A DNA stretch of 64,000 bases from a virus (lineage: Duplodnaviria; Caudoviricetes): positions 1 to 64,000 of the IMG/VR virus record IMGVR_UViG_2939702853_000005; one strand, 5' to 3'. The translations under genes were made by a program, and so were the position numbers. The notes beneath the pieces were generated by a model. The model searched no databases, had not been told where the DNA came from, and saw only the letters and a program-made list of their open reading frames with translations. Shown here piece by piece: positions 21,911 to 46,871 of this stretch (its first letter is position 1; each line of letters opens with the position of its first letter).

Positions 21911-22645
21911 TTACATCATGTAAGCTTCAAGAACGATATAGTTAGAACTTTTTTTATCCAGAAGATCAATTGGTCTTTGTCCATTTTTATTCTTGATATT
22001 AGCATTCGCTTTATAAGTAATGCCAGTCAGTTCCCCTAAATAAAAGTTATTTTTATCTAAAATACTCTCATGCAATGGGGAATTTCCAAGTGAATTAACA
22101 AGGTTCACGTTCAACGCATTTTTCTTAATCACAAGGTATGTCGCATAATCATTCTTGCGAATTACCCAGTGCAGAATCGAATCACCATTTGCATCCTGTG
22201 AATTAATCGTTAACTCGCCACTAGCAATGGCTGCTGCAATCTTCTCTGAATCCAGCTTATCTCCTTTTGTATATTGATCCACGTTAAAAGTTTTTCCTCC
22301 TGACTTAACCGCTGTTGTTGCTGGCTCACTTTTTGTAGTTGTTGTAGCTGATGGAGTAGAGGAGGGAGTAGAAACCGTTCCATTACTTTTAACTAGCTCA
22401 ATTTTACCGCCACTGGCGCTTGCTACATTATAGCCCATTGCTGAAGCCGTATCTCTAAGAGGAAGATACGCTTTACCGTTCACATTGATCGGGCTGTCAC
22501 TGAGCTTTGCTTGTTCTCCATCAACTATGATCTTGGTGGGTGTCAATGTTGCTTTTAAATATGTACTTGCTCCTGCTACGCCACTAACTGTTACTGCAAC
22601 ACCAAATATTGCACCAGCAAGAAACGTTGGAATCCGCTTTTTCAT
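21911..22645 (-). CDS. Secreted stalk-domain (Cu-amine-oxidase N-terminal-like) plus ankyrin-repeat protein
   Basis: Signal peptide; VNGKAYLPLRDTASAMGYNV; GDSILHW, GNSPLHES, GQRPIDL ankyrin motifs. Confidence 0.85.
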   Translation of the reverse strand: MKKRIPTFLAGAIFGVAVTVSGVAGASTYLKATLTPTKIIVDGEQAKLSDSPINVNGKAYLPLRDTASAMGYNVASASGGKIELVKSNGTVSTPSSTPSATTTTKSEPATTAVKSGGKTFNVDQYTKGDKLDSEKIAAAIASGELTINSQDANGDSILHWVIRKNDYATYLVIKKNALNVNLVNSLGNSPLHESILDKNNFYLGELTGITYKANANIKNKNGQRPIDLLDKKSSNYIVLEAYMM

Positions 22646-28155: not shown

Positions 28156-31100
28156 TTATAAATTAAAGCCATAATTATTTCCTAAAATACCTCTCTTGGA
28201 TTGTGTCTTAGCGGCATCAATCAATTTGGTTAAGATAGTCGATCCTGAATCCTTATCGTTTGCATGAATTTCTACCTTCTCAATGTGAATACTGTTATCG
28301 CTAGAGGCAGTAGAAGTATTATTGTTTTTAACAATATTGGGGTTAAACGTACTCTTAACCGAATCGACGATGCCGCGGGTTACATCAATGATTTTCAACA
28401 AGTTTCCTGTATCGCTTTTATTTAAGATTAATTCCTTTTGGTGAGCCAATAAGAATTGACCTTCTTTAGGCATATTAGCAGGAGTCATACCGCCAGTTTC
28501 AGCAGAGAACGGTTTGATCTTATTCAGATAGTCATATGACCCATCTGGGAATCCCCATTTAGAACGCATCGCATCATTTTCTTGTTTTAATTGTTTGAAT
28601 TGCGCCTGAAGACTTTTAATCTTATTGGTATCAGGTTTTTTCTCTCTCTGAAGCTGAACTACTTGTTTGGAGATGTTCTCAGCCTTTTGTTTATTAGACA
28701 AATATTTGTCCCAATCACCTTTTTGGCTTGCCTTGTCATCACCTTTACCTGTTCCTGTCCCACCGCCAATTCCTACACTAGAACCGTTGCCTATACCGCT
28801 ATCCAAATTCAAGAAATCATCGAGTCTACCTTGATCCATAGAAAGACTATCTAACATGTTCTGCATTTGCTTGCTTGTTTCTAATGATTGTTCTTGGAGG
28901 AAAGTGAAGAACTTCGAATACTCGCCTTTTAATTCATCAATCACAGATTTAACCTTGGTCTTATCGTCGCTCATAAGATCCTGTTTCATCCTGTAGAAAC
29001 GCTGCTCATCTTCTAAAATATCATCATACTTTTGCTCTGTAAGTTCTTTTTCTCTTTCGATGTTATCAGTAATTGCGTCATGAGTTCGATCTTCAGTATC
29101 TTTGGTCTTATCTAAATACTTCTTACGGTCTTCGAGCTGGTCATTTAAACCTTCTTTACGCAATTCACGCTCACGATCAAGTTTAAACTTGTCGATTTCT
29201 TCATTCTTTGCATCTAGCTGATCGGTTAATTCTTTCCTTTTAGCTTTAGCTTCGTAAGAATTGTTCAACGCAAGCTCATTAATTTTATCTTGAATCTTTT
29301 GACGCTCGTCTAGCTTCTTCTTTAGTTCCTTGTCATAATCATCTGATTCACTTGTCCGATCCAATTCTTGAAGTTGACGTTTAATGATCTCTTCAAATCG
29401 GTCTGATTCTTCCTCAAGATTTTTTAATCGAGCTTCATGCCTTTTATCCTCAGCTTCTTTTTGCTTATCGATAGCCTTTAAAGCCAAATCCTTCTGTTTC
29501 TCAACCATCTTCTTATAAGCCTCAATAATCTTATCAGCAGCAGCAGATTTTATGGAGTAGATCGCATTGTTATACTCAATGTTCTTCAGAGTTAAATCTT
29601 GCAAACGTTTAGACAATTCTTCTTTGTTCTGCAAATTTAACTTTTCATTTTTCAATTGTCTCTCTACAGCTAAAATTTCTTTTTCTGTAGCTACACGTTG
29701 CTCGTTTATCAGCCCAATCTGAGTAATAAGCTCTTGTTGATATGCCTTCGAATTTTCGTCCAACGATTCCATACGAGCCTTAGAAAGAGCTATCTTATCA
29801 GCAGCAGCATTAACCTTCTTCTCATATTCATCAAGATTAGAGACAATAACAGCATAGTATTTTTCCTGTTTCTGTTGTTCAAGCTCCCACCACTTTGTAC
29901 TGTTGGAAGATTTTTGTTTATCAAACTCACCAGCCGTAATCTTATTTTGCTTAACAAGGTTATCCAAGTTGATATTCTGAGATACAAGTTCTTTTTGCTG
30001 CGCTGTTAGCGACTTAATTTGAGCAGATTCCTCTTTTCGCCAGTTTGCTGACACTTGATCATATTTAGCCTGTCTGCCTTGAGATTTAGCAATGTCAACA
30101 TCCAAGGCATCCAACTTGTTCTGGCTCATTGTTACGTAGTTTTCAATATAATCTACACGAGCTTTATAAATGTTATCGTATGCAGTTGTTCTATTTTTCC
30201 GCGCATCTTCTTGAGCCTTATCCATATCAGAAGCAGAAGGGAGAGTGTACTTGTTTTTAGATTTCCCGCCCGTAACAGAAGAAGTGTCGCCATTATAGTA
30301 TCTCAATACGTTGCCTACATAATTTACGTCACCATAAATCTTGCTGCCTAATTTGTTCTTTTGCATGGCAGAGAACTTTTTCATGTTCTCAGCGCTGTAT
30401 CCACCATTTTTATTAAAATAATCCAGTATTCCCGGCCCCATGTTATACATAGCCAAAGCAACGTCCACATTACCCGTTTGATTTAAATACTTAGCAAACA
30501 TTGAAGTTCCAGTCTTAATACTACTTTCAACGCTAGTATTTTTACCAAGGCTACTGACCTGCATAACATTTTTTATACCATTAGCACCATTGGAGGATTC
30601 TTGCTGGATGATGGCTTTGATTAGCGCAGGGTCTACGCCATTAGCTCCAGCATATTTGTTTATCAAGTCGGCGTTTTTACCAGTTACTTTTGTAGATGTA
30701 GAAGTAGAGGGAGACTGAATTTCTGGAATAGCATTTGCACCGGGAACACGTCTTGCTCCACTATATCTAGTAGACCAATACTTGTCGTTCAGATTCCCTT
30801 GCTTTATTCCAGAGTCGCCCATCTGCATAAAGTTACCGTCACCCATGTAGAAACCAACATGAGAATTAGCCTTGCCTTTGATAGTATTGAAGAATACAAG
30901 GTCGCCTTTTTGCAAATCCTTTTTATTGGTTACGGCTTGACCCTGCTTAACTTGTTCTTGAGTAGTTCGGGGCAGTTTAATATCAAGGAACTCTTTAAAC
31001 ATTTGCTGCACAAATAGAGAGCAGTCGGATACAGCAGTAGCTGTAAATTGATCGTAACTAACATTTGATTTAGCAGCTTGACTATATTTGAACGTTTTGG

Positions 31101-34100
31101 ACGAAGACAAGGACAAAGCTTCGGAAATCATCGAATCTAAGCCAGTTCCACCTTTTGTAGTAGTGGTAACTTTAGTAGACACTAACTTAGATGGATCTTT
31201 AATGCCTTCTGTATACAATTCAGCTTGCTTTTCAAGAAGTTTTATTTGTTCCTTTAAAGCCTTGCCGTATTCCTCTGTTCCTTTTTTTAATCGACTCATT
31301 CGACTAGTTTGTGCATCTTGAGCAGCAGCAATCGCTTTAAGCTTCTTCTGAGTTTCGGTTAAAATTTCATTAGTCTCTGACAAAGAATCATTATATTGTT
31401 CATTTTTCTTTGTAGCTTCTTTGCTAACACCTAAGTCAGGATCGCTAAATATACCCAACATTTCTTTGGCTTGTTTGGATTTCTCGTCAAGAGCAGATGT
31501 AAACTTATCTAATTCACTTCGTTGTTCTTCAAGTACTTTTGTTCTAAAAGTTGGAACCTCTTGATCTTTTGAAATTCCTAAAGCATTCTTTAACCCATCT
31601 GTCATAGGTAATTTGCTTTTAGCAATCTCTTCATCTATCTTAACAAGCGCTTTCTTAGCGTCTGCTAGATCCTTTATGCTATTAAGCTCAAGACCATAAG
31701 CGTTAATGTTGCTAATAACAGAGTTAATGTTGTTAATTTCACGCTGCTTTTCGCCTTCTAATGCTTGTTTAACCATTAGGATTTGTGCTTGTCTTAGATT
31801 CTCAATTGCTCCATTTTCAAGAACATAACCATCCTTGACTTTCTTGATACTAGCCGCCAATTGAGGATTTTTCTTTATGAGGTCGGCAACAGTAGCAGCA
31901 CTTAGGTAGCCATTTTTCTGCTGGTCATACATGATTTGATTCAATGTCTTTAATTCAGATGCAGAGTCATCTAATGTCTTATTTAACTTTTCCCTAGATT
32001 CAGAAGCGTCTTCGGTAGCATTGGCAACCTTACCCTCTGTGGCAGCTAATTGATCTGATTTGAGTGTGCTTTCAGCGTATAGGACATTAACATCAGCCAT
32101 GCTGTTTCTTAAGTTAAGAAGTTCTACTTTTAGTTTATCTACTGCTTTTTTTTGTTCTTCGTATTCTTTTACTCTGAATTGATGTACATTAGGCCCTTTT
32201 AAATACAATGCTTTATTATTAAGAGTGGCTTCAGCCTTAGCTATTTCATCTTGCTTGTCTTTAATATCTTGATTAATAGAGTTTTTTTGAGAGATTAAAC
32301 TTTGACGGTTCAATTCTTCTTTTTCAAGTTTTAAAGCCTTCAATACTGCAATTTCTTTATTTGCAGCTTCTTCTGTAAATCCTGCCGCCTTCAGTCTTGC
32401 CAATCCTTCATCACCAATGGTAACAGCTATAGCTTTTGAAATTTCATCTAATTGCTTTTTCGCCTTGCCTTGGGCTATTTCTGATAGAGTACCGCTATTG
32501 ACAACCTTGGTAAGATCATTGTGTGCCTTAATTAATTTAGGAAAGAAGTCGATTTGTCTATCTATTTGACTTATCTGTTGTTCTCTAGCCGAGATATTAT
32601 CTTTAATCTTTTGTGTTTCATCTCTTTGAGCTTTTTCTGCTGTTCCCATTCCAAGTGCTAGGGAGGCTAGTAAACCAATAGCTACAGATATACCCATAGT
32701 TGCTACACTTGTCATAACAGCGGCTCTTGCAGAAGCAGCAGTTTGTGCATTAATTGCTACTGTAGTTGCCTCTGTAGCAACCGTTCTTCCAACTTCGGCG
32801 GTTGTAGCAGTTCTAGAAGTAACTGCATGTGCAGCATTAGCCACTGAACTGGCAGTTACAGCAGTAGTTTCAGAATTCGTAACTACGACTAATCCTTGTC
32901 TCATACCTCTAACAACAGTTAATGAATCAATCACATTTTTTACAGGAGATTTTAAAGCAAGGAAAGCTGCACCCAACCCCACAGTAGCAGCAGTTACACC
33001 GAAAACACTTGAAGGTATCTTTGTTAAACCAATAAACAGTTGATCGGTTATGTCGAGTACAGTTTTAATCATACTTCGCAATCCATCGTTACCAGCAGTA
33101 TTGAATATATCAATGAAAGAGGTTTTTACTTGTGATGCTTTGCGAGAGATAGTATCCATCTGGGTAGTCAAGTACTCTAATGTTGAACCAGTTGAACCGA
33201 TAGAATATGCCGTACCAAGTAGGATATCACCCGGATTTAATGAAGCAGCCAATTTAGCGTATTGATAAACCCCACGGGAAATAGCCGCGTATGATTGAGT
33301 TAAATCATAGTTTTTATCTGTAACAGCAACAGAAAGGTCAAGTAGAATATCTTCAGCCTTACGCCATTGCTCAACACCATTTACAACTTCCTTGGTTTTA
33401 ACACCTAACTTTTCAATTTCACTAACTGCTTTACCTGTACGAATAGTACCCAATACGGTTTTCCACATGTTACCCAAGTTTTCACCAGATAAAGCAGTAT
33501 TACGCATACCCGATGAAATCAAACCGTTCATAAAATCAAAACTAACACCAGTCTCTTGAGCAATTTTACCTGTGCGTTCAAATGCTGCACCCAAGTCTCT
33601 AGCAGGAGCCATAGTTTCGTGCGCTACCTTGCTCCAAGAGTCAAGGATTCGACCTCCATATAGTTGTGCATCATTTGTATTCTTAAGTTGTACACCATAT
33701 TGAGCAAGCACAGATTCCATTGATTTTGTGGCATCTTCAAGACTCACCAGGTCAACTGTTGAAAGCATAGTAGATTGACGCACTAGGGTCTGAACAACAC
33801 CAACATCTTTATACATACGACCCCAGAGACGTGCAGACTCAATTACGTCATTAATAGCAGCGCCTTGATCGTGTGCTGTTTGAATGAATTGTTTAGATTG
33901 ATCATTGACTTTTTGCATGTCTAAAGCGCCGTGTTGCAAGCCTTGGAAGTAATGTTCGTTAGTCTGGATATATCCAGCCATCTTTGTTTCAATATCAACC
34001 ATACCTTTAAATCCTTCTGAAATAGAAGAAAATACAGTACCATACAACGCACCAGCAATTAAATGTGCGCCAATCGACTTGAATGCATGGCTAACCTTAT

Positions 34101-35148
34101 CGCCAAATGACTGAACTTGCGTACTTGCAGTTTTAGCGGAAGACTCTAAATCCCTGAATCCTTGTTGTATCTGTTTGATTTTATTTTTCAAACCAGAATC
34201 ATTAATGTCTAATTTTGAAGCATTGTTCAAAAGAGAAGTCAGATCAGCTTGATTAACTGTTGACCCATATTTAGTATTTAAACGTTTAGCGCTTGCTTCA
34301 GCTTGTTGTTTAAACTCATTCAGATTTTGGAGTTTACTTTGATTGGTTTTCGTTTCAGATATTTCTTGTTGTCGTAGGTTTCTAGTCCACCAATCCGCGT
34401 ATTCTTTTCTAGATTGTTGATTTTTTAAATCAGCGGCTCTTTGTAGTTCAGCATTCTTTTGAATACCCTGCTGTTGATTTGTTGCTAGTTGTCTCTCTGA
34501 ATCTCTAACTCTTTCCATAGACTTAATACGTCCATCATACATCTGATTGACAAGAGACTCTTGATCTTTCAACATTTTAGCATGGTTAATTATCTCGTCG
34601 TACTTCTTTACAGTGCCATTTTGATCAATATTAGCTGTAACTTTTTGTCCAGTTTCTTTATTTTCGTATGTATTTTTATAACCAACTACTTGACCTTTAC
34701 CATTCTTAATAGCTTTCTCGTTTGCTAGATTATAGCCTTTTAACTCAGCTTCCAATTGTTGAATTGACTTTCGTTGTTTATCATATGCTTCAGTCTCTTG
34801 CTGTAACTTCATTCTATGTTCATCAATAACTTTATTGGTCTTGGTAATGATATTGTTGTCGGCTGATCTTAGTTCAGTTATTTTTTCTATGCTTCCATCT
34901 AATCGTTTATATGTAGTTGTAGTTTCACTAACAATCTTATTTTGCTGCTCCATTGCTAAATTTAACTTATTGGCAGCGGATACAAAGCTATTCATAGTTG
35001 CTACAAAACTCTTATCAATATTGATTTTAATATTCAAACTTTGAAGAGAAGGGTGTTTGCTTAGAGCCTTCAATTTTTCATTGATGTTTTTAACACTGGA
35101 ACCCATATTGAGGTCAGCTTGCACTAAAATTTTTAATCTATCAGGCAT
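28156..35148 (-). CDS. Tape measure protein with NlpC/P60 and lytic transglycosylase (SLT) domains (YomI/CwlP-like)
   Basis: 2330 aa coiled coil; tape-measure core; SDCSLFVQ..LQKGDLVFF..HVGFYMG; VDPALIKAIIQQES..ALAMYNMG. Confidence 0.92.
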   Translation of the reverse strand: MPDRLKILVQADLNMGSSVKNINEKLKALSKHPSLQSLNIKINIDKSFVATMNSFVSAANKLNLAMEQQNKIVSETTTTYKRLDGSIEKITELRSADNNIITKTNKVIDEHRMKLQQETEAYDKQRKSIQQLEAELKGYNLANEKAIKNGKGQVVGYKNTYENKETGQKVTANIDQNGTVKKYDEIINHAKMLKDQESLVNQMYDGRIKSMERVRDSERQLATNQQQGIQKNAELQRAADLKNQQSRKEYADWWTRNLRQQEISETKTNQSKLQNLNEFKQQAEASAKRLNTKYGSTVNQADLTSLLNNASKLDINDSGLKNKIKQIQQGFRDLESSAKTASTQVQSFGDKVSHAFKSIGAHLIAGALYGTVFSSISEGFKGMVDIETKMAGYIQTNEHYFQGLQHGALDMQKVNDQSKQFIQTAHDQGAAINDVIESARLWGRMYKDVGVVQTLVRQSTMLSTVDLVSLEDATKSMESVLAQYGVQLKNTNDAQLYGGRILDSWSKVAHETMAPARDLGAAFERTGKIAQETGVSFDFMNGLISSGMRNTALSGENLGNMWKTVLGTIRTGKAVSEIEKLGVKTKEVVNGVEQWRKAEDILLDLSVAVTDKNYDLTQSYAAISRGVYQYAKLAASLNPGDILLGTAYSIGSTGSTLEYLTTQMDTISRKASQVKTSFIDIFNTAGNDGLRSMIKTVLDITDQLFIGLTKIPSSVFGVTAATVGLGAAFLALKSPVKNVIDSLTVVRGMRQGLVVVTNSETTAVTASSVANAAHAVTSRTATTAEVGRTVATEATTVAINAQTAASARAAVMTSVATMGISVAIGLLASLALGMGTAEKAQRDETQKIKDNISAREQQISQIDRQIDFFPKLIKAHNDLTKVVNSGTLSEIAQGKAKKQLDEISKAIAVTIGDEGLARLKAAGFTEEAANKEIAVLKALKLEKEELNRQSLISQKNSINQDIKDKQDEIAKAEATLNNKALYLKGPNVHQFRVKEYEEQKKAVDKLKVELLNLRNSMADVNVLYAESTLKSDQLAATEGKVANATEDASESREKLNKTLDDSASELKTLNQIMYDQQKNGYLSAATVADLIKKNPQLAASIKKVKDGYVLENGAIENLRQAQILMVKQALEGEKQREINNINSVISNINAYGLELNSIKDLADAKKALVKIDEEIAKSKLPMTDGLKNALGISKDQEVPTFRTKVLEEQRSELDKFTSALDEKSKQAKEMLGIFSDPDLGVSKEATKKNEQYNDSLSETNEILTETQKKLKAIAAAQDAQTSRMSRLKKGTEEYGKALKEQIKLLEKQAELYTEGIKDPSKLVSTKVTTTTKGGTGLDSMISEALSLSSSKTFKYSQAAKSNVSYDQFTATAVSDCSLFVQQMFKEFLDIKLPRTTQEQVKQGQAVTNKKDLQKGDLVFFNTIKGKANSHVGFYMGDGNFMQMGDSGIKQGNLNDKYWSTRYSGARRVPGANAIPEIQSPSTSTSTKVTGKNADLINKYAGANGVDPALIKAIIQQESSNGANGIKNVMQVSSLGKNTSVESSIKTGTSMFAKYLNQTGNVDVALAMYNMGPGILDYFNKNGGYSAENMKKFSAMQKNKLGSKIYGDVNYVGNVLRYYNGDTSSVTGGKSKNKYTLPSASDMDKAQEDARKNRTTAYDNIYKARVDYIENYVTMSQNKLDALDVDIAKSQGRQAKYDQVSANWRKEESAQIKSLTAQQKELVSQNINLDNLVKQNKITAGEFDKQKSSNSTKWWELEQQKQEKYYAVIVSNLDEYEKKVNAAADKIALSKARMESLDENSKAYQQELITQIGLINEQRVATEKEILAVERQLKNEKLNLQNKEELSKRLQDLTLKNIEYNNAIYSIKSAAADKIIEAYKKMVEKQKDLALKAIDKQKEAEDKRHEARLKNLEEESDRFEEIIKRQLQELDRTSESDDYDKELKKKLDERQKIQDKINELALNNSYEAKAKRKELTDQLDAKNEEIDKFKLDRERELRKEGLNDQLEDRKKYLDKTKDTEDRTHDAITDNIEREKELTEQKYDDILEDEQRFYRMKQDLMSDDKTKVKSVIDELKGEYSKFFTFLQEQSLETSKQMQNMLDSLSMDQGRLDDFLNLDSGIGNGSSVGIGGGTGTGKGDDKASQKGDWDKYLSNKQKAENISKQVVQLQREKKPDTNKIKSLQAQFKQLKQENDAMRSKWGFPDGSYDYLNKIKPFSAETGGMTPANMPKEGQFLLAHQKELILNKSDTGNLLKIIDVTRGIVDSVKSTFNPNIVKNNNTSTASSDNSIHIEKVEIHANDKDSGSTILTKLIDAAKTQSKRGILGNNYGFNL

Positions 35149-35215
35149 TACGTTTAAGTCACTTCCTTTTTTTACTTTTATAAAATAGAAAAAAGAAGAG
35201 ACTTAATATCTCTTC

Positions 35216-35638
35216 TTACTGTTCATCCTTATATTTAATTTGTTCTACAATTTCACAGAAACGGTCATACCAATCAGCAGCAATACCTTCAAACTCGGTG
35301 GGGCCACGATTAATTACCGATTCTTTGATAGATAGAAGCATCAATTTTCGTTCTTCGGTTTCATCGATAACGATTTCTTCTTTGTGTAAGCTGTGTATTT
35401 CCGACAGACGCTCATTGTTATTTTCAAACGTATACTTACCATCTTCTACAACAGGTTCACCGTCAGAGCCTTTAATGACATAATCCATATTTATATCATT
35501 TGTGTCGTTTAGAAATTCATCGTAGTGTTCTAGAAGGAGCTTCTTAAACTTTACTTTATGTCTACTGTCGGTTCTATCAGTCTTTAATGTATCGAGATAG
35601 GCAATAAAATTTTCAAGTTCAAATTTGTATAGTTTCAT
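35216..35638 (-). CDS. Hypothetical phage protein
   Basis: RBS agggag; open 140-aa frame. Confidence 0.75.
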   Translation of the reverse strand: MKLYKFELENFIAYLDTLKTDRTDSRHKVKFKKLLLEHYDEFLNDTNDINMDYVIKGSDGEPVVEDGKYTFENNNERLSEIHSLHKEEIVIDETEERKLMLLSIKESVINRGPTEFEGIAADWYDRFCEIVEQIKYKDEQ

Positions 35639-35686: not shown

Positions 35687-35860
35687 TTACTTAATCCAAC
35701 ACGTGATGTGGGGTTCCTGCCAGCGCTCTTTATTGAAAAGAAGAGGATTATTAGGATAATGTTTATGAGATGGGAATGTTCTATCAAAAGTAAGAAGATA
35801 AAATGCCGCAATCTCTTCGGATGTACCCTCGACTTTAATACCATTGATTTTAGCTTTCAT
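35687..35860 (-). CDS. Small hypothetical protein
   Basis: RBS aaggagg plus ATG (MKAKINGIKVEGTSEEI). Confidence 0.6.
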   Translation of the reverse strand: MKAKINGIKVEGTSEEIAAFYLLTFDRTFPSHKHYPNNPLLFNKERWQEPHITCWIK

Positions 35861-36896
35861 GTTCAACTCCTCCTTCGTCATCTTTACCAATATGGCTCTT
35901 CAGCTTGCCTAAACTCTTCCATTTACGATCTTTAGCTGTTAAATCGTTGTAGATACGATACATGTCGGCACTCGTCCAACCCATAAGTTCAATAATAAAG
36001 TCTGACTCAAGTCCAATACGAGTTAGGTTTGTAACTAGATAGTGTCGAAGGGAGTGAAAATAGAAGGGGGTCTCCAAAAACTTTTCCCACTTAGTACTCC
36101 AACTTCTAACTGTACCGACCTCTGCTGGCTCACCATCCGATTTAATAAAGAGGAAGTCATGTTCTTTATTGTTCTTCAGCATAATCTTTTCTCGTTCAAC
36201 GATCCAAGCTTGGTAATAAGGCCAGAACTTTTCTTTGAATATGTATTTATATAATAGCTTCCCTTGCTTACCAAAACCTTTAGTCTTAATTTCTTTAGTG
36301 GTTTCTAAGAATAGACCGTCAAAGGCCGTATTATTCTCATCAATAATCGAAGTTGTAAACCTCAGCAATTCAGAAACCCTTGCACCACTGTTTGCAGCCA
36401 AAGCGAGAAGACATGCTTCTTGAGGTTTATTCAAGTCATTACTCAAATGTTTGAGAAGGGCATCAACCTGTTCTTCGAGTAAAATAGTTTTCTCTCGAAC
36501 AGGATTATTCTTAAGGTTGTCAATCGATTTAAGAATAACATTACGGAAATTTGGATATTCATCATCAAAAAAGTTCTCAATAAAATTAGAAAAACTACTT
36601 AAACAAGATTTCATTCTACCGAAACGTTTGGGACTCCATTTAAGTTCTTCAATTGCATAACTAAAGAAATCAGAAAATTCTATCTTTTTAATGTCCACAA
36701 AGAACTTATTATCGTTCTCAAGGAGATTCCAAGTGAAAAATATATTCAAATCACTTTTATATCCCTTGATAGTTCCATCCGAGCATTTCATATTTTTTTC
36801 TTTTATAAAACGATTAATCATTTTAACGTTCTTTGGATTAAACTGTGCAGTTAATTCATCACTGGTGATTACTTTCATGTAAGTTTTTCTTGCCAT
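35850..36896 (-). CDS. Tyrosine recombinase (YomM-like)
   Basis: GARVSELL (R), TKG (K), FHSLRH (HxxR), LMGW (W), RIY (Y). Confidence 0.9.
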   Translation of the reverse strand: MARKTYMKVITSDELTAQFNPKNVKMINRFIKEKNMKCSDGTIKGYKSDLNIFFTWNLLENDNKFFVDIKKIEFSDFFSYAIEELKWSPKRFGRMKSCLSSFSNFIENFFDDEYPNFRNVILKSIDNLKNNPVREKTILLEEQVDALLKHLSNDLNKPQEACLLALAANSGARVSELLRFTTSIIDENNTAFDGLFLETTKEIKTKGFGKQGKLLYKYIFKEKFWPYYQAWIVEREKIMLKNNKEHDFLFIKSDGEPAEVGTVRSWSTKWEKFLETPFYFHSLRHYLVTNLTRIGLESDFIIELMGWTSADMYRIYNDLTAKDRKWKSLGKLKSHIGKDDEGGVEHES

Positions 36897-36999: not shown

Positions 37000-37434
37000 T
37001 TACTTAACTTCCACATCGAGTCCTTGTCGTTCCAATCCTCTATGAAGAGCTGCAACATGAGCATTTGTATTATGCAACTCCTCGACAGTCTTTTCGACGA
37101 ATGGGCGAGGACGACCAGAATAAGCGAATTCAAAATCATAACCCTGTCCAGTTTCTACAACTAGGCTAACGTTCTTACTTCCATCCATACGCTGGCTTTC
37201 AATGGATACAGTATCTTGTCCAATCATTTCAACTGCAATATTACGTTCATCGGTGAGACCCCCTTGATCGCGTTGCCTCTCATAGACAGTAGGAGTGTAT
37301 ACATCATAAACATTATCCTCTATGGACTGTTTCAAATTATCTTTAACTGTGTGAGCGACATCAACTTGCAAAGCTGAAGCGATTTTTTGCTTCAATAGTC
37401 TTTCCAATTCAGCAAAATTATTCGCTGTCGGCAT
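37000..37434 (-). CDS. Putative tail-completion (HK97 gp10-like) protein
   Basis: RBS gagg; VYDVYTPTVYER..PRPFVEKT pattern. Confidence 0.65.
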   Translation of the reverse strand: MPTANNFAELERLLKQKIASALQVDVAHTVKDNLKQSIEDNVYDVYTPTVYERQRDQGGLTDERNIAVEMIGQDTVSIESQRMDGSKNVSLVVETGQGYDFEFAYSGRPRPFVEKTVEELHNTNAHVAALHRGLERQGLDVEVK

Positions 37435-37897
37435 CAGAGTTTGCCTCGTTACTATTCGTTTCTTCATTTGCTTTTCTTTCAATCTCAGCAAAATTATCTG
37501 CTATTTCCTTAAAACGCTTCTCTAATTTTTTGACCTGAATCTCAGGTAATTTATTTACTACTTCTACGAAAATGTTTGTGTTCAATAAATTCTCATACAC
37601 CTTAATCAAAGTCTGAAAGTCATTTTTATTAGGAATGGGGAGGTCTGTAAATTCTCGCAACATCAAAGTAGATCCAATTTGTGAAGCAATTTGACTGAAT
37701 GTTAATTCTGTAAGTTGTGATTTTTCAATCCCTTGGACAACTTCTATGAGTCCTGTAAAAATGTTGTTGATTGAACTTTCTTTGAAGTTTTGCTTAATAG
37801 TCACTTCAAATTGACCATCCAGAATGGGATGTGTTTTCGTCTGTTCAAGCTCTTTGCTGAGTTTATTCAATTCTGTAGCTGTTATTTTTTTAGTCAA
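37418..37897 (-). CDS. Putative tail assembly chaperone
   Basis: Position between tail tube and tape measure; LMLREFTDLPIP motif; RBS aaggag. Confidence 0.65.
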   Translation of the reverse strand: MTKKITATELNKLSKELEQTKTHPILDGQFEVTIKQNFKESSINNIFTGLIEVVQGIEKSQLTELTFSQIASQIGSTLMLREFTDLPIPNKNDFQTLIKVYENLLNTNIFVEVVNKLPEIQVKKLEKRFKEIADNFAEIERKANEETNSNEANSDADSE

Positions 37898-37912: not shown

Positions 37913-39007
37913 TTATTGTGGAAATGTTTCGTCCAACACCTTAGACCATTTCTCTTCCCATCTTTTACTATCAAATGCCATCGAAACTTCTCGGGCATTC
38001 TTACCAAATGTTTCGGCTTTATCTCTATTGTGATATAAATACTCAATTGAATTGCATAGATTGTCTACAGTAGGCTTGATCAGTAATCCATTGTATCCAT
38101 CGATAATTAGATCGCTTAATCCACCTACACAGCTAGCTATAACTGGCTTTCCAAATGCCTGTGCTTCAATGCAGCTCAAACTTGTACCTTCTGCACCGAG
38201 AGTGGGGATTAATACTATGTCTGCTTGTTCGTAAGCACGATACATCTTATTCATATCAAAATGTTCCCATCGAACTCGATCTTGAGTATTTACCCATCGC
38301 TTAAATTGCTGTTCGCCTTCAATAGTGCCTCTGCCTACAAAGTAAAACTCCATGTCTTTGTATTTGGGGAGAAGTTTCTTAGATGCTTCAGCCGCCAACA
38401 AATATCCTCTTAATTCATGAAGTCTGCGAGGAATAAGCACTGTAAATTTACCTTTTCCTTTTTTCTCTCTAGGTTTAAAGGTGTCGGTATTGACATAGTT
38501 CGGTATGTATTCAAATTTATCATATAGTTTTGGATATAAAGCTTTAGTCCAACCAATAGTGTTTGTATCTACAGAAACAATTTTTCCTACACGGCGGTAG
38601 CAGTCTCTAATGTATTCATTGTATCCTTTAGCGTGATACCAGTCTTGAATTTCATTGTCCCACCAGATACCATGTGAAATGGCAATGGAGTTCTTTCGAG
38701 CTTCTGGAAAAGCAAGGGTGGCAACAAAATAGATAGTGTAATCATAATTCTCTGTCCGTTTATGAAACTCAATCGTTAAATCTGGAAAAGATTCTTTGTC
38801 ACCAATGGGGCAGGGGATACCAGTTATTTTTACATCCTTGAAACTCTTTACCCAAGACGTAGTGGATGCTTGAAAAACATCTACACTATAATTCTTTTTT
38901 CTTAATAGACGTACAAGATCAATTAAATACCTTTCGCCGCCACCCATTTGAGTATATGTTCCAGTTAGATCAAAGAATTGCGTTGTCAAAAGTGCTACTT
39001 TTTTCAT
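37913..39007 (-). CDS. Glycosyltransferase family 4 (GT-B)
   Basis: GGGERY; EGTSLSCIEAQAFGKPVIAS (E-x7-E); RBS aaaggag at the MKKVALL start. Confidence 0.92.
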   Translation of the reverse strand: MKKVALLTTQFFDLTGTYTQMGGGERYLIDLVRLLRKKNYSVDVFQASTTSWVKSFKDVKITGIPCPIGDKESFPDLTIEFHKRTENYDYTIYFVATLAFPEARKNSIAISHGIWWDNEIQDWYHAKGYNEYIRDCYRRVGKIVSVDTNTIGWTKALYPKLYDKFEYIPNYVNTDTFKPREKKGKGKFTVLIPRRLHELRGYLLAAEASKKLLPKYKDMEFYFVGRGTIEGEQQFKRWVNTQDRVRWEHFDMNKMYRAYEQADIVLIPTLGAEGTSLSCIEAQAFGKPVIASCVGGLSDLIIDGYNGLLIKPTVDNLCNSIEYLYHNRDKAETFGKNAREVSMAFDSKRWEEKWSKVLDETFPQ

Positions 39008-40004
39008 CTTTTTCTCCTTTGAAAAATTCCTTAATAGCGCCGTTAATGATTTCAAATCTATCATCCCATGAATTGTATTTAGCCATTTCTTTGGCTTTAT
39101 TTTTGTAGTCATTACACTTAGATACTTTAATTGCTTTATGAATATTTTTTATGAATTCTTTGTGGTTTCTGCTTACAAATACTACATCTTTATAATCATC
39201 CATTTCAGGAATATCGGTTGCTACTACTGGAGTGCCATGAGCAAGTGATTCATAAACTTTCAAAGGATTACTGAAGTCACTGATTTGACAGCGTTGAAAC
39301 GGGAGAAGGGTAACATCTGCGTGATGATAATAAGCTTGAAGTTCTTGGTATCCTTTTGAACCCAAATAATGAACCCCTTTAGGCATTTCTTTAATACCCC
39401 AAGGAAGTCCAACAACCAAAACTTGATATTTCTTCGCTATTTTCTCCATAAGCAATAGGTCGCACCAATTCGACGTGAGCGCACCTGAGAATAATACGAT
39501 AGGCTTATTTCTTTTATTGAATGGAGTCAAGTCTTCAGGAATAGGATAGTCGAGATCTCCTAATTCATTAAAACAAGCATTTCGAACCAAGTGTACATTT
39601 TTATGTTGCTTACTTCTTAGTTCTAGCAGAGGTTTAGAAGCAGCCAATAAAATATCTGCCTTACTTATCATGTTTACTTCTTCATGTTCGTTTTCTGGGA
39701 AATTGTCCAGAGAATCGTAAATAACTAAATCGGCTTCAATACTCTCTAAATCCATATGACGCATAGCCCAAGAAGAAAAATATATGTCAACTTTAGGATT
39801 TCTCTTTAAAAAGACTTCCCAGTTATGATAAACCTCAAGTGTATCAGAGATGCGATCACGCACTTTGTCTGTTCGTTGAGTGTAATTAACCCAATAGACC
39901 ATGTACCCATTTTCAGAAAAATACTTCATAAGATGATGCGGTCGCTGTTGTAATGGCTGATCGAAGTCAATAGTATTGGCATAAACAATCGTTTTTTGTT
40001 TCAT
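38970..40004 (-). CDS. GT-B glycosyltransferase (TuaH-like)
   Basis: QRPHHL, IYDSLDNF, NPLKVYESLAHGTPVV motifs. Confidence 0.88.
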   Translation of the reverse strand: MKQKTIVYANTIDFDQPLQQRPHHLMKYFSENGYMVYWVNYTQRTDKVRDRISDTLEVYHNWEVFLKRNPKVDIYFSSWAMRHMDLESIEADLVIYDSLDNFPENEHEEVNMISKADILLAASKPLLELRSKQHKNVHLVRNACFNELGDLDYPIPEDLTPFNKRNKPIVLFSGALTSNWCDLLLMEKIAKKYQVLVVGLPWGIKEMPKGVHYLGSKGYQELQAYYHHADVTLLPFQRCQISDFSNPLKVYESLAHGTPVVATDIPEMDDYKDVVFVSRNHKEFIKNIHKAIKVSKCNDYKNKAKEMAKYNSWDDRFEIINGAIKEFFKGEKDEKSSTFDNAIL

Positions 40005-40763
40005 TTAGTTCTCCCTAAGATATCTTTCTAAATAATCTTGTGACATAATATGATGCGAGAACACGCCTAAATCACAGTAAAGCTCAAACCCTTTGTCTTG
40101 AGCCATCTTGCAAAAATATGCGTCCTCTCCTTGTGGATGAAATCCGTATTTTACTGATTTATAAACTTTGCGACTTAACATGATAATTGCTCCCGTAAGA
40201 TCAACCTGTATAAGAACAGAAGATGGGAGGAAGGGTGCATTTTTCACTTGATTATTTACAATATGTTCAAAGTAACCCTTGGTATTAATCTTCATGATGT
40301 TAGGAAATAAATATGGTTTATCAGGATTAGAGATATAGCCGTTCCAAATTAATCCCGACACAATATCTCGTTTATGCTTGAGTAGATTATTAATGATATC
40401 AGGTTGAACGAGGATATCCGTGTCTATAAACATCAGATGATCAGTTTTAGTCTTTGACATGATATAATTCCGTAATTTACTCAAATGAGTATATATATAA
40501 TTGTTTCTTACATTTAAATCTCTTTTATCTACTGGTGCATTGCGATTATATACATCAATTCGTATATTTTTATATGTATGTTTATTTTCTTTTTTGAAAC
40601 TATTCAAAATATCCAACGAAATATCTTCAGAATCGTTTACTACGAATAATAATTCCATCTTTGCTTTTGGATAATCAATGTCCAGAATATGTTGTAAATA
40701 AGAAGGAAGAATCCAAGCTCTATTTCTAATTGGTGCAGCTATTGTGACTGTTGACGTATTCAA
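40005..40763 (-). CDS. Glycosyltransferase family 2-like (GT-A)
   Basis: IAAPIRNR, FVVNDSED, FIDTDILV (DxD), GEDAYFC motifs. Confidence 0.9.
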   Translation of the reverse strand: MNTSTVTIAAPIRNRAWILPSYLQHILDIDYPKAKMELLFVVNDSEDISLDILNSFKKENKHTYKNIRIDVYNRNAPVDKRDLNVRNNYIYTHLSKLRNYIMSKTKTDHLMFIDTDILVQPDIINNLLKHKRDIVSGLIWNGYISNPDKPYLFPNIMKINTKGYFEHIVNNQVKNAPFLPSSVLIQVDLTGAIIMLSRKVYKSVKYGFHPQGEDAYFCKMAQDKGFELYCDLGVFSHHIMSQDYLERYLREN

Positions 40764-40782
40764 AACTTTCTCCTTTTATGGC

Positions 40783-40810
40783 ATAGCCAAGTCCCGAAGG
40801 ACTCAGCTAT
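40783..40810 (-). promoter_or_regulatory. UUCG-capped hairpin with no U-tract between the tail tube and GT genes
   Basis: atagctgagtcc-ttcg-ggacttggctat followed by gccataaaaggag. Confidence 0.65.
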
Positions 40811-40821
40811 AATTTTATTGT

Positions 40822-41619
40822 TTAAATCATTTCATTTGCATCATAAATGGTCATAGTATAAAGCTGTGTGCTATTTTGTGGTTTTAGAATTTCCAAAGGA
40901 ATGTCAAATACCGAAGGATCGCCACCGGCAGCCATATCAATTTTCCATCCATCTTCCATTTTGGCATTTGTGATATCAATCTGAGCCGCATAATCCTGTT
41001 TATCTCCAACTGCTCGAACAATGACATCAAGTATAACTCTATATGTTCCAGCAAACTTATCAGAAGAGACGGTAATAGTTTTCGCAGATGCACCTGATTG
41101 AGTTTTGTAGTATGCAACGATTTCTGTGTTATCTTCAAACTCTCCATCGGAAAAGGTCAATTCTTTACCAGTAATGGAATATGTGCCTTTACTCAAGGCT
41201 CCCACAGCGAATTCAATCTCTTTTTCGTGAACACCTTCATTTGAAAGCAGATATACGCTATTCAATCCTTCGACTGGAGTCGCTGGAGTATAGTTAAGTG
41301 TAGCTTTATTATTAACGATTTTAATTTCATCACGTTGAATAATTGGTGCTACACCTTTTTGGATATCATTTCCTGTCATCATCGCAATTACTTCATTTGT
41401 AAATACTGCATCTTGCAAAGGAACCTTTGCGCCTCTGTTACCAGAAAACCCAACAATTTTGTTGTTTCCTTCGCCACCTTGGGCATAGACAGTATCTGCT
41501 GAATTCTCAATTCCAGAAGTCTTTAAATTTTTAAGTTGAACTTTTGCTTTACCCGTTTTCAGGTCGTAAAATGTAGCTTTGGCAACTGCTCGAATTGCCC
41601 AAATATCTGGCGTTGACAT
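40822..41619 (-). CDS. Major tail (tube) protein (YomU-like)
   Basis: LKTSGIE..YAQGGEGN..DAVF..IAMMTG pattern; position in the operon. Confidence 0.8.
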   Translation of the reverse strand: MSTPDIWAIRAVAKATFYDLKTGKAKVQLKNLKTSGIENSADTVYAQGGEGNNKIVGFSGNRGAKVPLQDAVFTNEVIAMMTGNDIQKGVAPIIQRDEIKIVNNKATLNYTPATPVEGLNSVYLLSNEGVHEKEIEFAVGALSKGTYSITGKELTFSDGEFEDNTEIVAYYKTQSGASAKTITVSSDKFAGTYRVILDVIVRAVGDKQDYAAQIDITNAKMEDGWKIDMAAGGDPSVFDIPLEILKPQNSTQLYTMTIYDANEMI

Positions 41620-42844: not shown

Positions 42845-43354
42845 TTAGTTCACAATAAAATCTCTGGTCAGTACATATTCCAGAAAACCACTAGTGTTCA
42901 TATCCCTTGTATCATCAAATGTAGCGACGACCTTATCTACCTGATCTAGTGTGAGTGGAGTGGTACGATGTATTTCTTCGCCAAGACTATTTCGAACTTT
43001 GACCTTATAGTAGTTACCGTTTGGTTGCAGATTACCCAATTCATACGTCAAAGCAATACATTTTAAAGCTTCAAGTGCAGAACCTTTATCTATGTGAGTT
43101 TCTTTGGCGAATGCCAATTTAAACTTATTGTCTGTAGCAATCGAATAAGCGTATTTGAATTGTGGGTTAATAGCTACATCCAGATCAGCATCAATGATTT
43201 CAACTGTGGGTGTTGCACTGATAATTACAGAATTATCAATCCCAGATGAGTGCTGAATAGAGTAGGGAAGGGGGGAGAAGATGAGCCAATTATTTGTAGC
43301 TCCTTGAACAAATTGCTCAAGTTTAAGTTCTCCAAAACGGATGATGGCCTGCAT
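42845..43354 (-). CDS. Hypothetical morphogenesis-region protein
   Basis: RBS aaggag; coupled ORF. Confidence 0.7.
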   Translation of the reverse strand: MQAIIRFGELKLEQFVQGATNNWLIFSPLPYSIQHSSGIDNSVIISATPTVEIIDADLDVAINPQFKYAYSIATDNKFKLAFAKETHIDKGSALEALKCIALTYELGNLQPNGNYYKVKVRNSLGEEIHRTTPLTLDQVDKVVATFDDTRDMNTSGFLEYVLTRDFIVN

Positions 43355-43365
43355 GGATACACTCC

Positions 43366-44571
43366 TTATAGTAATGATTTGATTTCAATTTCTTTTGATG
43401 CACAAGCTAATCTGGTAGAGTTTTCAACATGCAAAATTACTCTTCCTTTTTTGTTATTAGCTTTAATTTTACAAACCTGTCCGTCTTGTTCGATTAAGGT
43501 AGCTAAACTGGTAGGAGTTACACTGTCTTCTTCAGTTAACCAAAAATGAGCCTTGTCTTGTCGATCAACCCCATTATCTTTAAACGAGCAAGCAAAGGAT
43601 TTAGTCATGTTGTATTTAATGAAGTCGTCGCCTGAAATGTGGGCAGTGTAATTATTTGTAGTAGAGGACGTTATGTTTACTTGAATGGTTTGCGATATAT
43701 TTCTAAATGAAATGGTTATTTTACTTGTTCCTTTTTTAAGAGGAGTTACTAAACCAGTAGGAGAGACAGATACAATAGTTTCGTCATCAACAGAATATAT
43801 AATTTTATCATCGATTTCTATTACCTTTGAATTATTGGTTAGTTCGATGTTCAATTGCAGAGCTTGATTTTCTTCAATCGCAACAACATCTTTAACATTC
43901 AAAACATTCAGTTGGTAGTCAGCGATACTACCATTGTAATCGGCAATCTCAAGTTCTAAATTATCAGCAGGAATTATATCTTGCTCTTCAAGAGTCAAGT
44001 TTATTAATCCATCGATTAGACGATTAATCCCCACAGTCTTCCAAGCACGACCATCAATAATAAACCTTCTATTTTTCTTTATTTTTTCGGTCTGATTATT
44101 TTTTTGAACTGTTATTTGTCGTCTCTCATTTGGCATCATTAAGATTCGACCTTCCTGAATACCAAAGTTAGACGATGTATCGGTTTTGAAGGAGAGTGGA
44201 GTTTCTTGTATTTCACCTTGACCATCCAACCACTTAAGAGTTGAATAACAAATTAGAATTACACCACGATGATATATTTCCATATCATCAACATGGTTGC
44301 ATAACCAAGTCTTATCCCTCCATATAACCAAATCGCCCATTTTCAACGGATAATTCAATGCAACAATATTTTTTTGTTCTCGAACATCTCCATCATCGGT
44401 AATCCAAACTTCTTGATTTGATTCTCCATTGATATTCACTTGAAAATAATTAGGAAATTGCGAAAACGTTGAACTCATAACTTGTTTCGTATGAATGATG
44501 TTTCTGTCTCTGACATTTGTTTTACAGTTAGAAAGATATGACTTATATGCCTTATATGCCTTGTATCTCAC
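43366..44571 (-). CDS. Head-tail joining protein with Ig-like (Big_2) domain
   Basis: LKMGDLVIW..LKWLD; YSVDDETIVSVSPTGLVTPLKKGTSKITI. Confidence 0.75.
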   Translation of the reverse strand: MRYKAYKAYKSYLSNCKTNVRDRNIIHTKQVMSSTFSQFPNYFQVNINGESNQEVWITDDGDVREQKNIVALNYPLKMGDLVIWRDKTWLCNHVDDMEIYHRGVILICYSTLKWLDGQGEIQETPLSFKTDTSSNFGIQEGRILMMPNERRQITVQKNNQTEKIKKNRRFIIDGRAWKTVGINRLIDGLINLTLEEQDIIPADNLELEIADYNGSIADYQLNVLNVKDVVAIEENQALQLNIELTNNSKVIEIDDKIIYSVDDETIVSVSPTGLVTPLKKGTSKITISFRNISQTIQVNITSSTTNNYTAHISGDDFIKYNMTKSFACSFKDNGVDRQDKAHFWLTEEDSVTPTSLATLIEQDGQVCKIKANNKKGRVILHVENSTRLACASKEIEIKSLL

Positions 44572-45698: not shown

Positions 45699-45761
45699 CT
45701 ATATGCCTCCCTATTATTTAATAAAAAAGGTCGATAAGAATATACTTACCGACCAATGATT

Positions 45762-46871
45762 TTATGAGAATTTATACAAACCATAAGCTGCTGCGGTAAT
45801 CAACTGCACATCGTAATGCTGTGCAACAGAGTAACCCACAGTACGATCTGCGTTATCTTCTGGTTTGGATTGAGTGATTTCTGTGTTACCTTCGAATCCA
45901 ATTTTAACAAGCTTATCAGAGCCAGAAGAGAGTACAACGGCGAAGTCACCGTCAATAGCAAAATCATCGCTATTCGGTTTCAAACGTTGTCCAATTTCAA
46001 ACAGTTCTGTTCCTTGGAAATTGCCCAAATGTCCAGTTTTATTAAACTCTTGTCCAAGACCAAATTGAAGGTATTGATTTTCGGGTAGGATACGGGCAAG
46101 AGCAGTCTTAGTGCCGAACACTACACTCTTATCTGTGTTATTTGCAGCAGAAACACGTTGAACCAGATTGTTGAAAGCTGTAGAAGTAAATGCTGCATTT
46201 TCTTTATATTTAGCACCCAGAGTAGTAAAAGAGTCATAAATAGAAGAGTAGATGCGAGTAGTGATATCTGTTTCAATTGCCTGAGCCACACGTGCAACCC
46301 ATGCTCCCCAATTTGTTTTTCCTGCGAGTACTCGGTACAATTCTTCATAAATCTCTACAGTTCTACGTTGAGGTGTAAGCGTTACATCTTTTCCGAACAA
46401 ACGTTGACGTTGATTGCCGCGTTGCCCGTTAGCCTTTGTACTAACCACAAACAAATCAGGGCTGTCTACGTGAAACAGAAGTTGATCTCCCCAATTTACA
46501 TTCTTAACATCAGCAAATTGATAAAAACTATCAAGCACTGTTTCAGGGATGACAATATCCAATGTTTGAGCGACCAAGGCAAAAGTAGCCCATTGGACAT
46601 TTGGATTAGAAGCGATCATACCTTCAGTAAAATTAGTATCAGATGGAATACCTGCTAGACGGTAAGCCTCTTTTTTCAAGCCTTTGGTAAACAATTCTTG
46701 TTTTGCGTCAAGGTTTACACCATCATTTGCATACTGAGCATACTTATTAAAACGACCATCTTTGTTGCGGTTTTGATAGCAATAGTGATACCATGCTTCC
46801 ACCCCAGCTTGTACAACATCTTTTTCGGTTTGTGACATATTAAAAAACTTAAGATTACTATAGTTTTTCAT
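45762..46871 (-). CDS. Major capsid protein (YonB-like)
   Basis: 369 aa, RBS ggagg, after scaffold and decoration genes; FADVKNVNWGD..F.V pattern. Confidence 0.8.
   Translation of the reverse strand: MKNYSNLKFFNMSQTEKDVVQAGVEAWYHYCYQNRNKDGRFNKYAQYANDGVNLDAKQELFTKGLKKEAYRLAGIPSDTNFTEGMIASNPNVQWATFALVAQTLDIVIPETVLDSFYQFADVKNVNWGDQLLFHVDSPDLFVVSTKANGQRGNQRQRLFGKDVTLTPQRRTVEIYEELYRVLAGKTNWGAWVARVAQAIETDITTRIYSSIYDSFTTLGAKYKENAAFTSTAFNNLVQRVSAANNTDKSVVFGTKTALARILPENQYLQFGLGQEFNKTGHLGNFQGTELFEIGQRLKPNSDDFAIDGDFAVVLSSGSDKLVKIGFEGNTEITQSKPEDNADRTVGYSVAQHYDVQLITAAAYGLYKFS

Follow-up and report, generated by a model that had tools for sequence, protein, structure and literature searches.

To our knowledge, covalent glycosylation of the phage particle has been shown only for actinobacteriophages. 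Here we analyse a 64,000-nucleotide (nt) stretch of viral DNA (IMGVR_UViG_2939702853_000005, positions 1 to 64,000; hereafter the window), in which a cassette of three glycosyltransferase (GT) genes lies between a tail tube gene and a tail assembly chaperone gene, and compare this cassette with the described systems. According to papers that cite Freeman et al. 2023 (Cell Host Microbe 31:1216), namely PMC12363180, PMC12619734 and PMC11256854, the virions of Che8, Corndog and Myrna are glycosylated at the C-termini of their capsid and tube subunits, and Che8 gp110 and Corndog gp38 are essential for this glycosylation. In Corndog, the portal gene gp34 is followed by gp35 (a TylF-like methyltransferase), gp36 (unassigned), gp37 (GT2-like) and gp38 (GT25), and then by the protease gene gp39. 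Our literature search found no report of virion glycosylation for Paenibacillus or Firmicute phages, in agreement with the initial annotation of the window, according to which no example is known from SPbeta-like Firmicute phages. From gene content and comparison, we consider it somewhat probable that the cassette glycosylates a virion component by means of a conserved initiating GT-A enzyme and variable extending enzymes; overall, it is a well-supported candidate for such a system rather than a demonstration of one. The cassette comprises the following genes.

40005–40763, minus strand: GT-A glycosyltransferase, Anp1-like, 252 amino acids (aa), first gene of the cassette, TTG start at 40763
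38970–40004, minus strand: GT-B glycosyltransferase, TuaH-like / Glyco_trans_1_4, 344 aa, ATG start
37913–39007, minus strand: GT4 glycosyltransferase, 364 aa from the ATG at 39007, PF00534 and PF13439

On re-reading of the sequence, all coordinates hold, as do the gene order, the 0- and 38-nt junctions and the placement between tube and chaperone described initially. The GT-A gene has the ribosome-binding site (RBS) AAAGGAG at 40770–40776, and its stop codon directly adjoins the ATG of the GT-B gene. For GT4, the ATG at 39007, with AAAGGAG upstream, is a more plausible start than the longest-open-reading-frame (ORF) start at 39112, and would give the 38-nt overlap with GT-B; 15 nt beyond the GT4 stop at 37913 comes the chaperone TTG start at 37897, preceded by AAGGAGAG. 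The cassette genes, all on the minus strand, are thereby coupled to one another and to the chaperone. Their GC content (0.32–0.37) is phage-like, compared with 0.49 in the host. At the DNA level, neither the 8-kb region nor the cassette had a match among GenBank phages, and a protein search with GT4 gave only two weak metagenomic matches.

Judged from its genes, the phage is a large temperate siphovirus prophage of a Paenibacillus host, kin of Sundance, the Lactococcus 949 group and SPbeta-type phages. GT-A homologues at 57–85% identity derive from Paenibacillus genomes; for the tube protein, counterparts 27–35% identical occur in several large Bacillus siphoviruses, in Brevibacillus Sundance and in the Lactococcus 949 group. 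Contig C11, which carries the window, has a GC content of 0.35 from ~70 kb to its end and of 0.47–0.53 before. A 100-kb block of contig C10 (C10:55000–155605) has a GC content of ~0.35, like the window, and is probably either the part of the prophage that continues beyond the end of C11 or another large prophage.

Family and fold searches place the first enzyme in the metal-dependent GT-A-fold class. It passes the gathering scores of PF03452 (Anp1; 52.4 bits against a cut-off of 28.8, over profile positions 19–177 of 263 only) and PF00535 (GT2; 29.2 bits, cut-off 23.3), its D114-x-D116 (DxD) and E213-D214 are invariant among 15 homologues, and its AF2 model (pLDDT 93) matches GT-A folds. The best solved fold found by Foldseek is that of the human collagen galactosyltransferase COLGALT1 (E 3e-17, TMq 0.76), to which the sequence match spans residues 26–165 at ~15% identity; further matches are the LH3 glycosyltransferase domain, yeast Mnn9 (3zf8, E 4e-13) and mimivirus R699, and teichoic-acid enzymes (RmlT among them), GalNAc-T and SpsA match at E ~1e-10 or weaker. 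The GT-B protein scores 45 bits with PF13692 and also matches PF00534; its AF2 model (pLDDT 90) has a generic retaining GT4-like GT-B fold (MshA, SPS, BshA). Its best NCBIfam model is TuaH (NF047676), at 44 bits against a cut-off of 550 and over the C-terminal 110 residues only, so that 'TuaH-like' is, on sequence scores, a resemblance and not family membership. The third protein belongs to family GT4, with both GT-B halves above threshold (PF00534, 87.4 bits; PF13439, 32.7 bits) and the E-x7-E motif EGTSLSCIE in its C-terminal half. All NCBIfam matches of the cassette proteins (TuaH, EpsE, SdgA and others) are far below their cut-offs.

No transmembrane (TM) segment was found in the three GTs; the maximum KD19 of 1.7 falls in a core beta-strand of the model. 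PF04138 (GtrA) has three matches in the genome, on C21 and C27 and none on C10 or C11, and no Wzx gene is present on C10 or C11. The initial annotation, which had seen no flippase, GtrA or TM segment, is thus borne out. Pairwise dN/dS against relatives is 0.12–0.19 for GT-A, 0.06–0.075 for GT-B and ~0.02 for GT4, with 0.09–0.14 for the tube. All three genes are thus under strong purifying selection (0.02–0.19); their motifs are intact, and the enzymes are predicted to be soluble. GT4 is 98% identical in L002, L003, L004 and L006, where flanking genes are 20–90% and tubes only 20–67% identical; across these phages its dS is ~0.3 and its dN 0.007, a pattern that points to very strong constraint and to exchange as a module.

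Relatives were collected by searches with GT-A, the second chaperone ORF and a 169-aa protein encoded upstream of the tube. GT-A directly follows the tube gene in 24 IMG/VR contigs (mostly 130–220 kb) and in six species-representative genomes, and the cassette site is kept although the adjacent tube has been swapped for alleles only 20–70% identical. GT-A is constant among these cassettes, whereas the downstream enzymes vary.

TuaH-like GT-B and GT4: the window, L002, L003, L004, L006
GT-B 40% identical to that of the window and a Glyco_trans_1_2 (CgeB-type) enzyme: most other relatives
GT-B alone: L012
GT8 and GT32: L014, L015
Added methyltransferase: L044
Unassigned 290-aa ORF, then GT2, GT32 and a Methyltransf_24 enzyme: L046

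The methyltransferases in these cassettes are of the same family as Corndog gp35.

A profile built from 15 GT-A homologues recovered full-length relatives, 30–42% identical, in other viral contigs, and a GT-A homologue is present in at least 79 IMG/VR loci. In at least six unrelated viruses the family is embedded among head or tail genes, and the neighbours that could be named belong to morphogenesis, as in the following arrangements.

L054, L058/L061: terminase, portal, small ORF(s), GT-A, small ORF, head protease/capsid-like gene, with the major capsid gene downstream
L051/L052: terminase, three small ORFs, GT2, GT-A, portal/head-morphogenesis protein, protease
L056: capsid, 1254-aa multi-glycosyltransferase, GT-A
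L049: capsid, four connector-size genes, GT-B, GT-A, small genes, tape measure

The sole isolate homologue in the GenBank phage set is encoded by the archaeal tailed Methanobacterium virus PhiF1 (31% identical); its ORF15 (L142, MK994522.1 14903–15610) sits between the portal-like ORF14 and the head genes, and PhiF1 would offer a tractable second system in which to test particle glycosylation. In nine further mixed loci, terminase, portal, protease and head-morphogenesis families are again neighbours of GT-A.

Applied to 401 Paenibacillaceae genomes, the profile resolved three classes. The first is the phage gene, present in exactly those seven genomes that also encode the 169-aa protein, among them G000, the genome of this prophage. 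The second is a 219-aa GT-A in about 16 genomes (of 59 in the genus) that heads the operon of a second element, seen in four other Paenibacillus genomes (L134–L137; for example L135:1644–9930, minus strand), with an endolysin gene upstream.

Second-element operon: 219-aa GT-A, 363-aa GT-B, 212-aa gene resembling half a GT-B, phrog_2729 tube homologue, two small genes, 1291-aa tape measure

This element may be a prophage or tailocin-like. The third class consists of multi-domain host proteins in 55 of the 59 genomes of the genus. In G000 the host protein has 1007 aa and combines an Anp1-like GT-A with GT2 and methyltransferase domains; its locus on contig C14 (L140:8428–15332) also encodes a protein that combines a BclA_C domain with GxT collagen-like repeats, a further ORF with GxT repeats, a GT2+TPR protein, a separate GT2 and a methyltransferase, with two YheC/D ATP-grasp genes nearby. 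From this gene content, the locus looks like a spore-surface glycoprotein cluster.

Around the cassette, the minus-strand order is a capsid-family gene, a hairpin, five head-completion/connector-type genes, a 238-aa gene, the tail tube and the three GTs, continuing with two chaperone-type ORFs, a XerC/D-like gene, a 140-aa gene, a terminator-like site and the tape measure gene.

45762–46871, minus strand: capsid-family gene, phrog_4088
45729–45754, minus strand: intrinsic terminator-like site just after the capsid gene, 10-bp stem followed by TTTTTTATTA
43366–44571, minus strand: Ig-domain protein, 401 aa, among the five head-completion/connector-type genes
42845–43354, minus strand: 169-aa protein, among the head-completion/connector-type genes, no Pfam family and no PDB relative
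40822–41619, minus strand: tail tube (major tail protein) gene, 265 aa, next gene upstream of GT-A, phrog_2729 (E 3e-52)
40782–40811, minus strand: GC-rich UUCG-loop hairpin without a T-run, in the 58-nt spacer between tube and GT-A (sequence read; RNAfold, 13-bp stem, −18.3 kcal/mol)
37418–37897, minus strand: first tail assembly chaperone-type ORF, 159 aa, recognized by its position before the tape measure, phrog_7383
37000–37491, minus strand: second chaperone-type ORF, 163 aa, from the ORF list, phrog_19892, kept in all relatives
35850–36896, minus strand: XerC/D-type tyrosine recombinase gene, between the chaperone ORFs and the tape measure region
35193–35217, minus strand: intrinsic terminator-like site between the 140-aa gene and the tape measure, close to the latter
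28156–35148, minus strand: tape measure gene, 2330 aa

Homologues of the tube found by tblastn are tail tube or major tail proteins in Bacillus phages PJN02, Kirov and Thrax and structural proteins in Lactococcus 949-group phages and Brevibacillus Sundance; a PDB search linked it to the chain of a tail tube protein only weakly (E 0.3, not significant). The position of the first chaperone ORF is likewise filled in Sundance, 949 and PJN02, and the second overlaps it in the +1 register, consistent with a putative G/GT-type frameshift product. In Sundance, 949 and PJN02 the tube is followed by two small genes, a XerC/D-like recombinase and a long tape measure, with no GT, and this conserved order marks the cassette as an insertion into a conserved backbone. 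The XerC/D-like genes of Sundance (gp33), Lactococcus 949 (ORF131) and Bacillus PJN02 are placed likewise; some Paenibacillus relatives lack the gene or have, in its stead, a copy only 28% identical. The 169-aa protein, found only in this Paenibacillus phage lineage, is 58–96% identical in relatives, much above its neighbours. It was considered as a partner of the cassette and rejected, being missing from the cassette-bearing L014, L044 and L046 branches.

In most relatives, the spacer between tube and GT-A is occupied by an intrinsic terminator (a hairpin with a T-run), and the GT-A RBS follows so closely, within ~10 nt, that a promoter would not fit in between. Since the chaperone and tape measure genes lie behind this terminator, it must be read through. 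A promoter scan of the window gave fewer sites than shuffled sequence and none on the coding strand of the spacer; scan and sequence reading agree with the initial annotation, which had noted no separate promoter or terminator and only a UUCG hairpin lacking a U-tract. Upstream, the transcript segment with the cassette is probably bounded by the terminator-like site at 45729–45754. Among sequencing runs, none of RNA was listed for the window, and DNA runs had at most 9% of the sampled words in common with it.

A virion-linked role is favoured because the cassette site is kept in about 30 relatives, because GT-A recurs in the morphogenesis modules of unrelated viruses and because of the placement of the Corndog enzymes. 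Operon coupling, modular design and purifying selection speak for it as well, as does the absence of rival machinery (GtrA, Wzx, thymidylate-synthase-like and TGT-like genes) from the phage parts of the phage contigs. A protein acceptor is hinted at by the collagen-GT folds of GT-A and by the host paralogue beside BclA-like proteins. Under this explanation, the cassette would be a late-expressed, cytoplasmic glycan-building unit. Read-through of the tube–GT-A hairpin would lead to its transcription along with the chaperone and tape measure genes, less strongly than that of the tube. GT-A would add the first sugar to a virion protein during particle assembly in the cytoplasm, and the interchangeable downstream enzymes would lengthen it to a short oligosaccharide that differs by phage strain. 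The extenders would be the TuaH-like GT-B and GT4 here, and GT8, GT32, CgeB-like enzymes and methyltransferases in relatives.

Several observations weigh against glycosylation of the virion, which is argued here from genes and comparison alone. Enzymes of the GT4 and TuaH-like families typically take part in the synthesis of cell-wall polymers, and it is solely by gene order that the cassette is taken to be expressed late and to share the fate of the chaperone and tape measure genes. Seven relatives (L149, L175, L150, L146, L151, L162 and L166) are free of the cassette, some of them with tubes 62–64% identical to that of the window. In L149 and L175 the tube leads straight to the chaperone and the junction is empty; L150 and L146 have one small ORF there, L146 being otherwise close (tape measure N-terminus 90% identical); and L151 carries a recombinase-like gene and a DUF723/treble-clef protein (L151:4220–5341). 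Compared in this way, the tube–chaperone junction is a permissive cargo slot in which the cassette is frequent but dispensable. In the nine mixed loci, DNA methyltransferases and exonucleases also occur near GT-A, so that its association with morphogenesis genes is not exclusive. Across relatives, GT-A identity and tube allele show no co-variation (Spearman 0.04), as exemplified by GT-A proteins 85–93% identical where tubes are only 22–32% identical. Finally, no conserved C-terminal or internal Ser/Thr tag was found on the capsid, the tube or other structural ORFs. The multi-sugar virion glycan proposed initially therefore stands in part: intact soluble GTs within a structural unit and the comparative context speak for it, and the missing Ser/Thr tag, the missing co-variation with the tube, the cassette-free relatives and the ability of other cargo to fill the slot speak against it.

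GT-A identity correlates with that of the chaperone (Spearman 0.76) and the 140-aa gene (0.63); for the 238-aa gene the value is 0.13. Homing-endonuclease-like genes interrupt the cassette region in L037 (6842–7978) and L043 (8762–9904), and such insertions at or inside the tube–chaperone junction identify it as an insertion hotspot. The inserted homing-endonuclease-like and treble-clef genes belong to the HNH_repeat, DUF7487 and DUF723 families.

The acceptor was sought among the structural proteins. The initial annotation had pointed to the Ser at the end of the capsid and suggested surveying it against GT presence in relatives. The capsid of the window does end in YKFS, but cassette-bearing relatives end in KFS, KFA, NSLA, MQI or TFSS; the Ser is not conserved, and the clue fails. 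Tube C-termini are acidic and without Ser/Thr, with an identical ending in cassette-free relatives. A C-terminal Ser/Thr of capsid or tube was accordingly rejected as an acceptor tag of the mycobacteriophage type. Scanning all ORFs of the window revealed no Ser/Thr-rich tail on a structural protein. The tape measure protein has an internal Ser/Thr-rich stretch near residue 1479 (SPSTSTSTKVTG), the only one in a structural gene of the window, and one further Ser/Thr-rich match lies in a 244-aa ORF at 21911–22645. The Ser/Thr linker of the Ig-domain protein is not conserved and was set aside. In type-A tubes, two Ser/Thr columns (a TPATP-type loop near residue 111 and the Thr of a YYKT motif near residue 170) occur in 7/7 cassette-bearing and 0/3 cassette-free phages, a small and related sample; tube types B, C and D lack them, and they were likewise rejected. 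The first sugar may be placed on a folded surface feature or on another virion protein, and the candidate acceptors are the tube, the capsid, the Ig-domain protein and other virion proteins.

Among other explanations, the cassette could modify a host envelope glycopolymer from the cytoplasmic side, as TarM, TarS, TarP and TagE do with wall teichoic acid. The targets would be lipid-linked teichoic or teichuronic acid, a secondary cell-wall polymer or an S-layer glycan precursor, and an altered phage receptor would lead to superinfection exclusion or keep progeny off debris. GT4 matches the GT-B half of TarM and PglA among PDB sequences (E 3e-11 to 2e-10), the best NCBIfam model of GT-B is TuaH, soluble enzymes of this type need no TM segment, and RmlT, a teichoic-acid rhamnosyltransferase, is among the fold matches of GT-A (E ~1e-10). 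These matches are, however, generic and far under family cut-offs, and the collagen-GT folds rank seven orders of magnitude above RmlT. A receptor change would need lysogenic or early expression, whereas the cassette sits among late tail genes and lacks a separate promoter, and the GT-A family occurs in the head or tail modules of unrelated viruses, one of them archaeal with a host that lacks teichoic acids. We therefore regard envelope modification as unlikely.

Equally, the enzymes could be cargo of the permissive slot with a target unrelated to the particle: a host protein, a small molecule (in take-over or anti-defence) or a soluble intracellular glycan. The empty junctions of L149 and L175, the other genes found in L150, L146 and L151 and the homing-endonuclease-like genes of L037 and L043 are what such a slot would be expected to show, no acceptor signature was found on virion proteins, and GT4 also passes PF20706 ('GT4 in conflict systems', 31.5 bits). 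That score is far below its generic PF00534 score, and chance cargo leaves unexplained both the presence of GT-A in structural modules of at least six other virus lineages and its place beside a tube homologue in the second Paenibacillus element, so that we consider this account improbable too.

Glycosylation of packaged phage DNA, as by the T4 glucosyltransferases or other DNA-hypermodifying phage GTs, is highly improbable: the genes are part of a tail operon rather than of a replication or nucleotide-metabolism module, Pfam shows no match of any cassette protein to a T4-type DNA glucosyltransferase family, and PF00303 and PF01702 searches, which do not span every pathway to a modifiable base, found only a single thymidylate-synthase-family gene (PF00303; C10:7660–8445, ~47 kb outside the C10 low-GC block, with none on C11) and the host tgt on C41 (PF01702; no TGT/DpdA-like gene on C10 or C11). 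PMC12619734 cites Pyle et al. 2024 for phage GTs that add varied glycans to DNA, and multi-enzyme cassettes could make such glycans. A Tet/JBP family search gave 0 matches, its control being equally silent. The initial judgement that DNA is the less likely target agrees with these results, no DNA-hypermodification pathway having been found on the phage contigs.

Returning to glycosylation of the virion, a broader and more tentative form of this reading, which we consider possible but doubtful, is a tag-independent system in which one GT-A family, shared with host BclA-like loci, marks particle glycosylation in many unrelated bacterial and archaeal viruses. If this were true, folded virion proteins would carry a strain-variable oligosaccharide coat without a terminal Ser/Thr tail, and the exchange of extenders would suggest that the coat is under diversifying pressure, for instance through host sensors of structural proteins, adsorption to debris or persistence in soil. 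Should these Paenibacillus phages glycosylate their particles with other enzyme families and without terminal Ser/Thr tags, particle glycosylation would be older and more widespread than thought, with a bearing on phage stability, antigenicity and host sensing of structural proteins, and in bacterial and archaeal viruses alike the Anp1-like GT-A could serve as its genomic marker. The natural cassette variants and the cassette-free relatives offer a ready experimental contrast.

Compared with known systems, the cassette shares with GtrABC and with TarP, TarM and TarS the fact of being prophage-borne, and GT4 is weakly similar to the catalytic half of TarM, in an alignment that covers chain residues 298–505 only. 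Unlike Gtr systems, it has no GtrA flippase, GtrB-type membrane enzyme or serotype-specific GtrC on the phage contigs, and it lies in a tail operon, away from the attachment site and lysogeny genes. With yeast Anp1, Mnn9 and Van1 (PF03452, CAZy GT62), GT-A shares a passed Pfam gathering score, the Mnn9 fold match and the DxD motif; the yeast enzymes, however, reside in the Golgi membrane and elongate the mannan of N-glycans, and the enzyme of this bacterial virus is predicted to be soluble. The nearest folds of GT-A and the neighbourhood of its host paralogue (COLGALT1, LH3, the GT domains of giant-virus PLOD-like proteins and the exosporium BclA loci of spore formers) are those of enzymes that place sugar on protein. 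The cassette differs from collagen GT systems in that identity is ~15% and in that no collagen-like repeat was found in the phage parts of C10 and C11, and the link between the host paralogue and BclA-like proteins is one of neighbourhood only.

The closest parallel is with the mycobacteriophages (Che8 gp108–110, Corndog gp35–38 and Myrna), which also have several soluble phage GTs and, as in some relatives of this phage, methyltransferases. As in Corndog, the GTs are embedded in the virion structural operon, and in both systems gene content varies between phages. The enzymes are not orthologous to those of Corndog: GT-A is 21% identical to gp37 over 145 aa (pairwise E 9e-5), a fold-level likeness only, and gave no significant alignment with gp38, the essential enzyme. 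The C-terminal Ser/Thr acceptors of the mycobacteriophages have no counterpart here. The host phylum is Bacillota rather than Actinomycetota, and the site is the tube–chaperone junction. The system would thus be of a kind known from actinobacteriophages but, lacking the terminal tag, would be built from other enzyme families, in another phylum and at another site of the structural operon.

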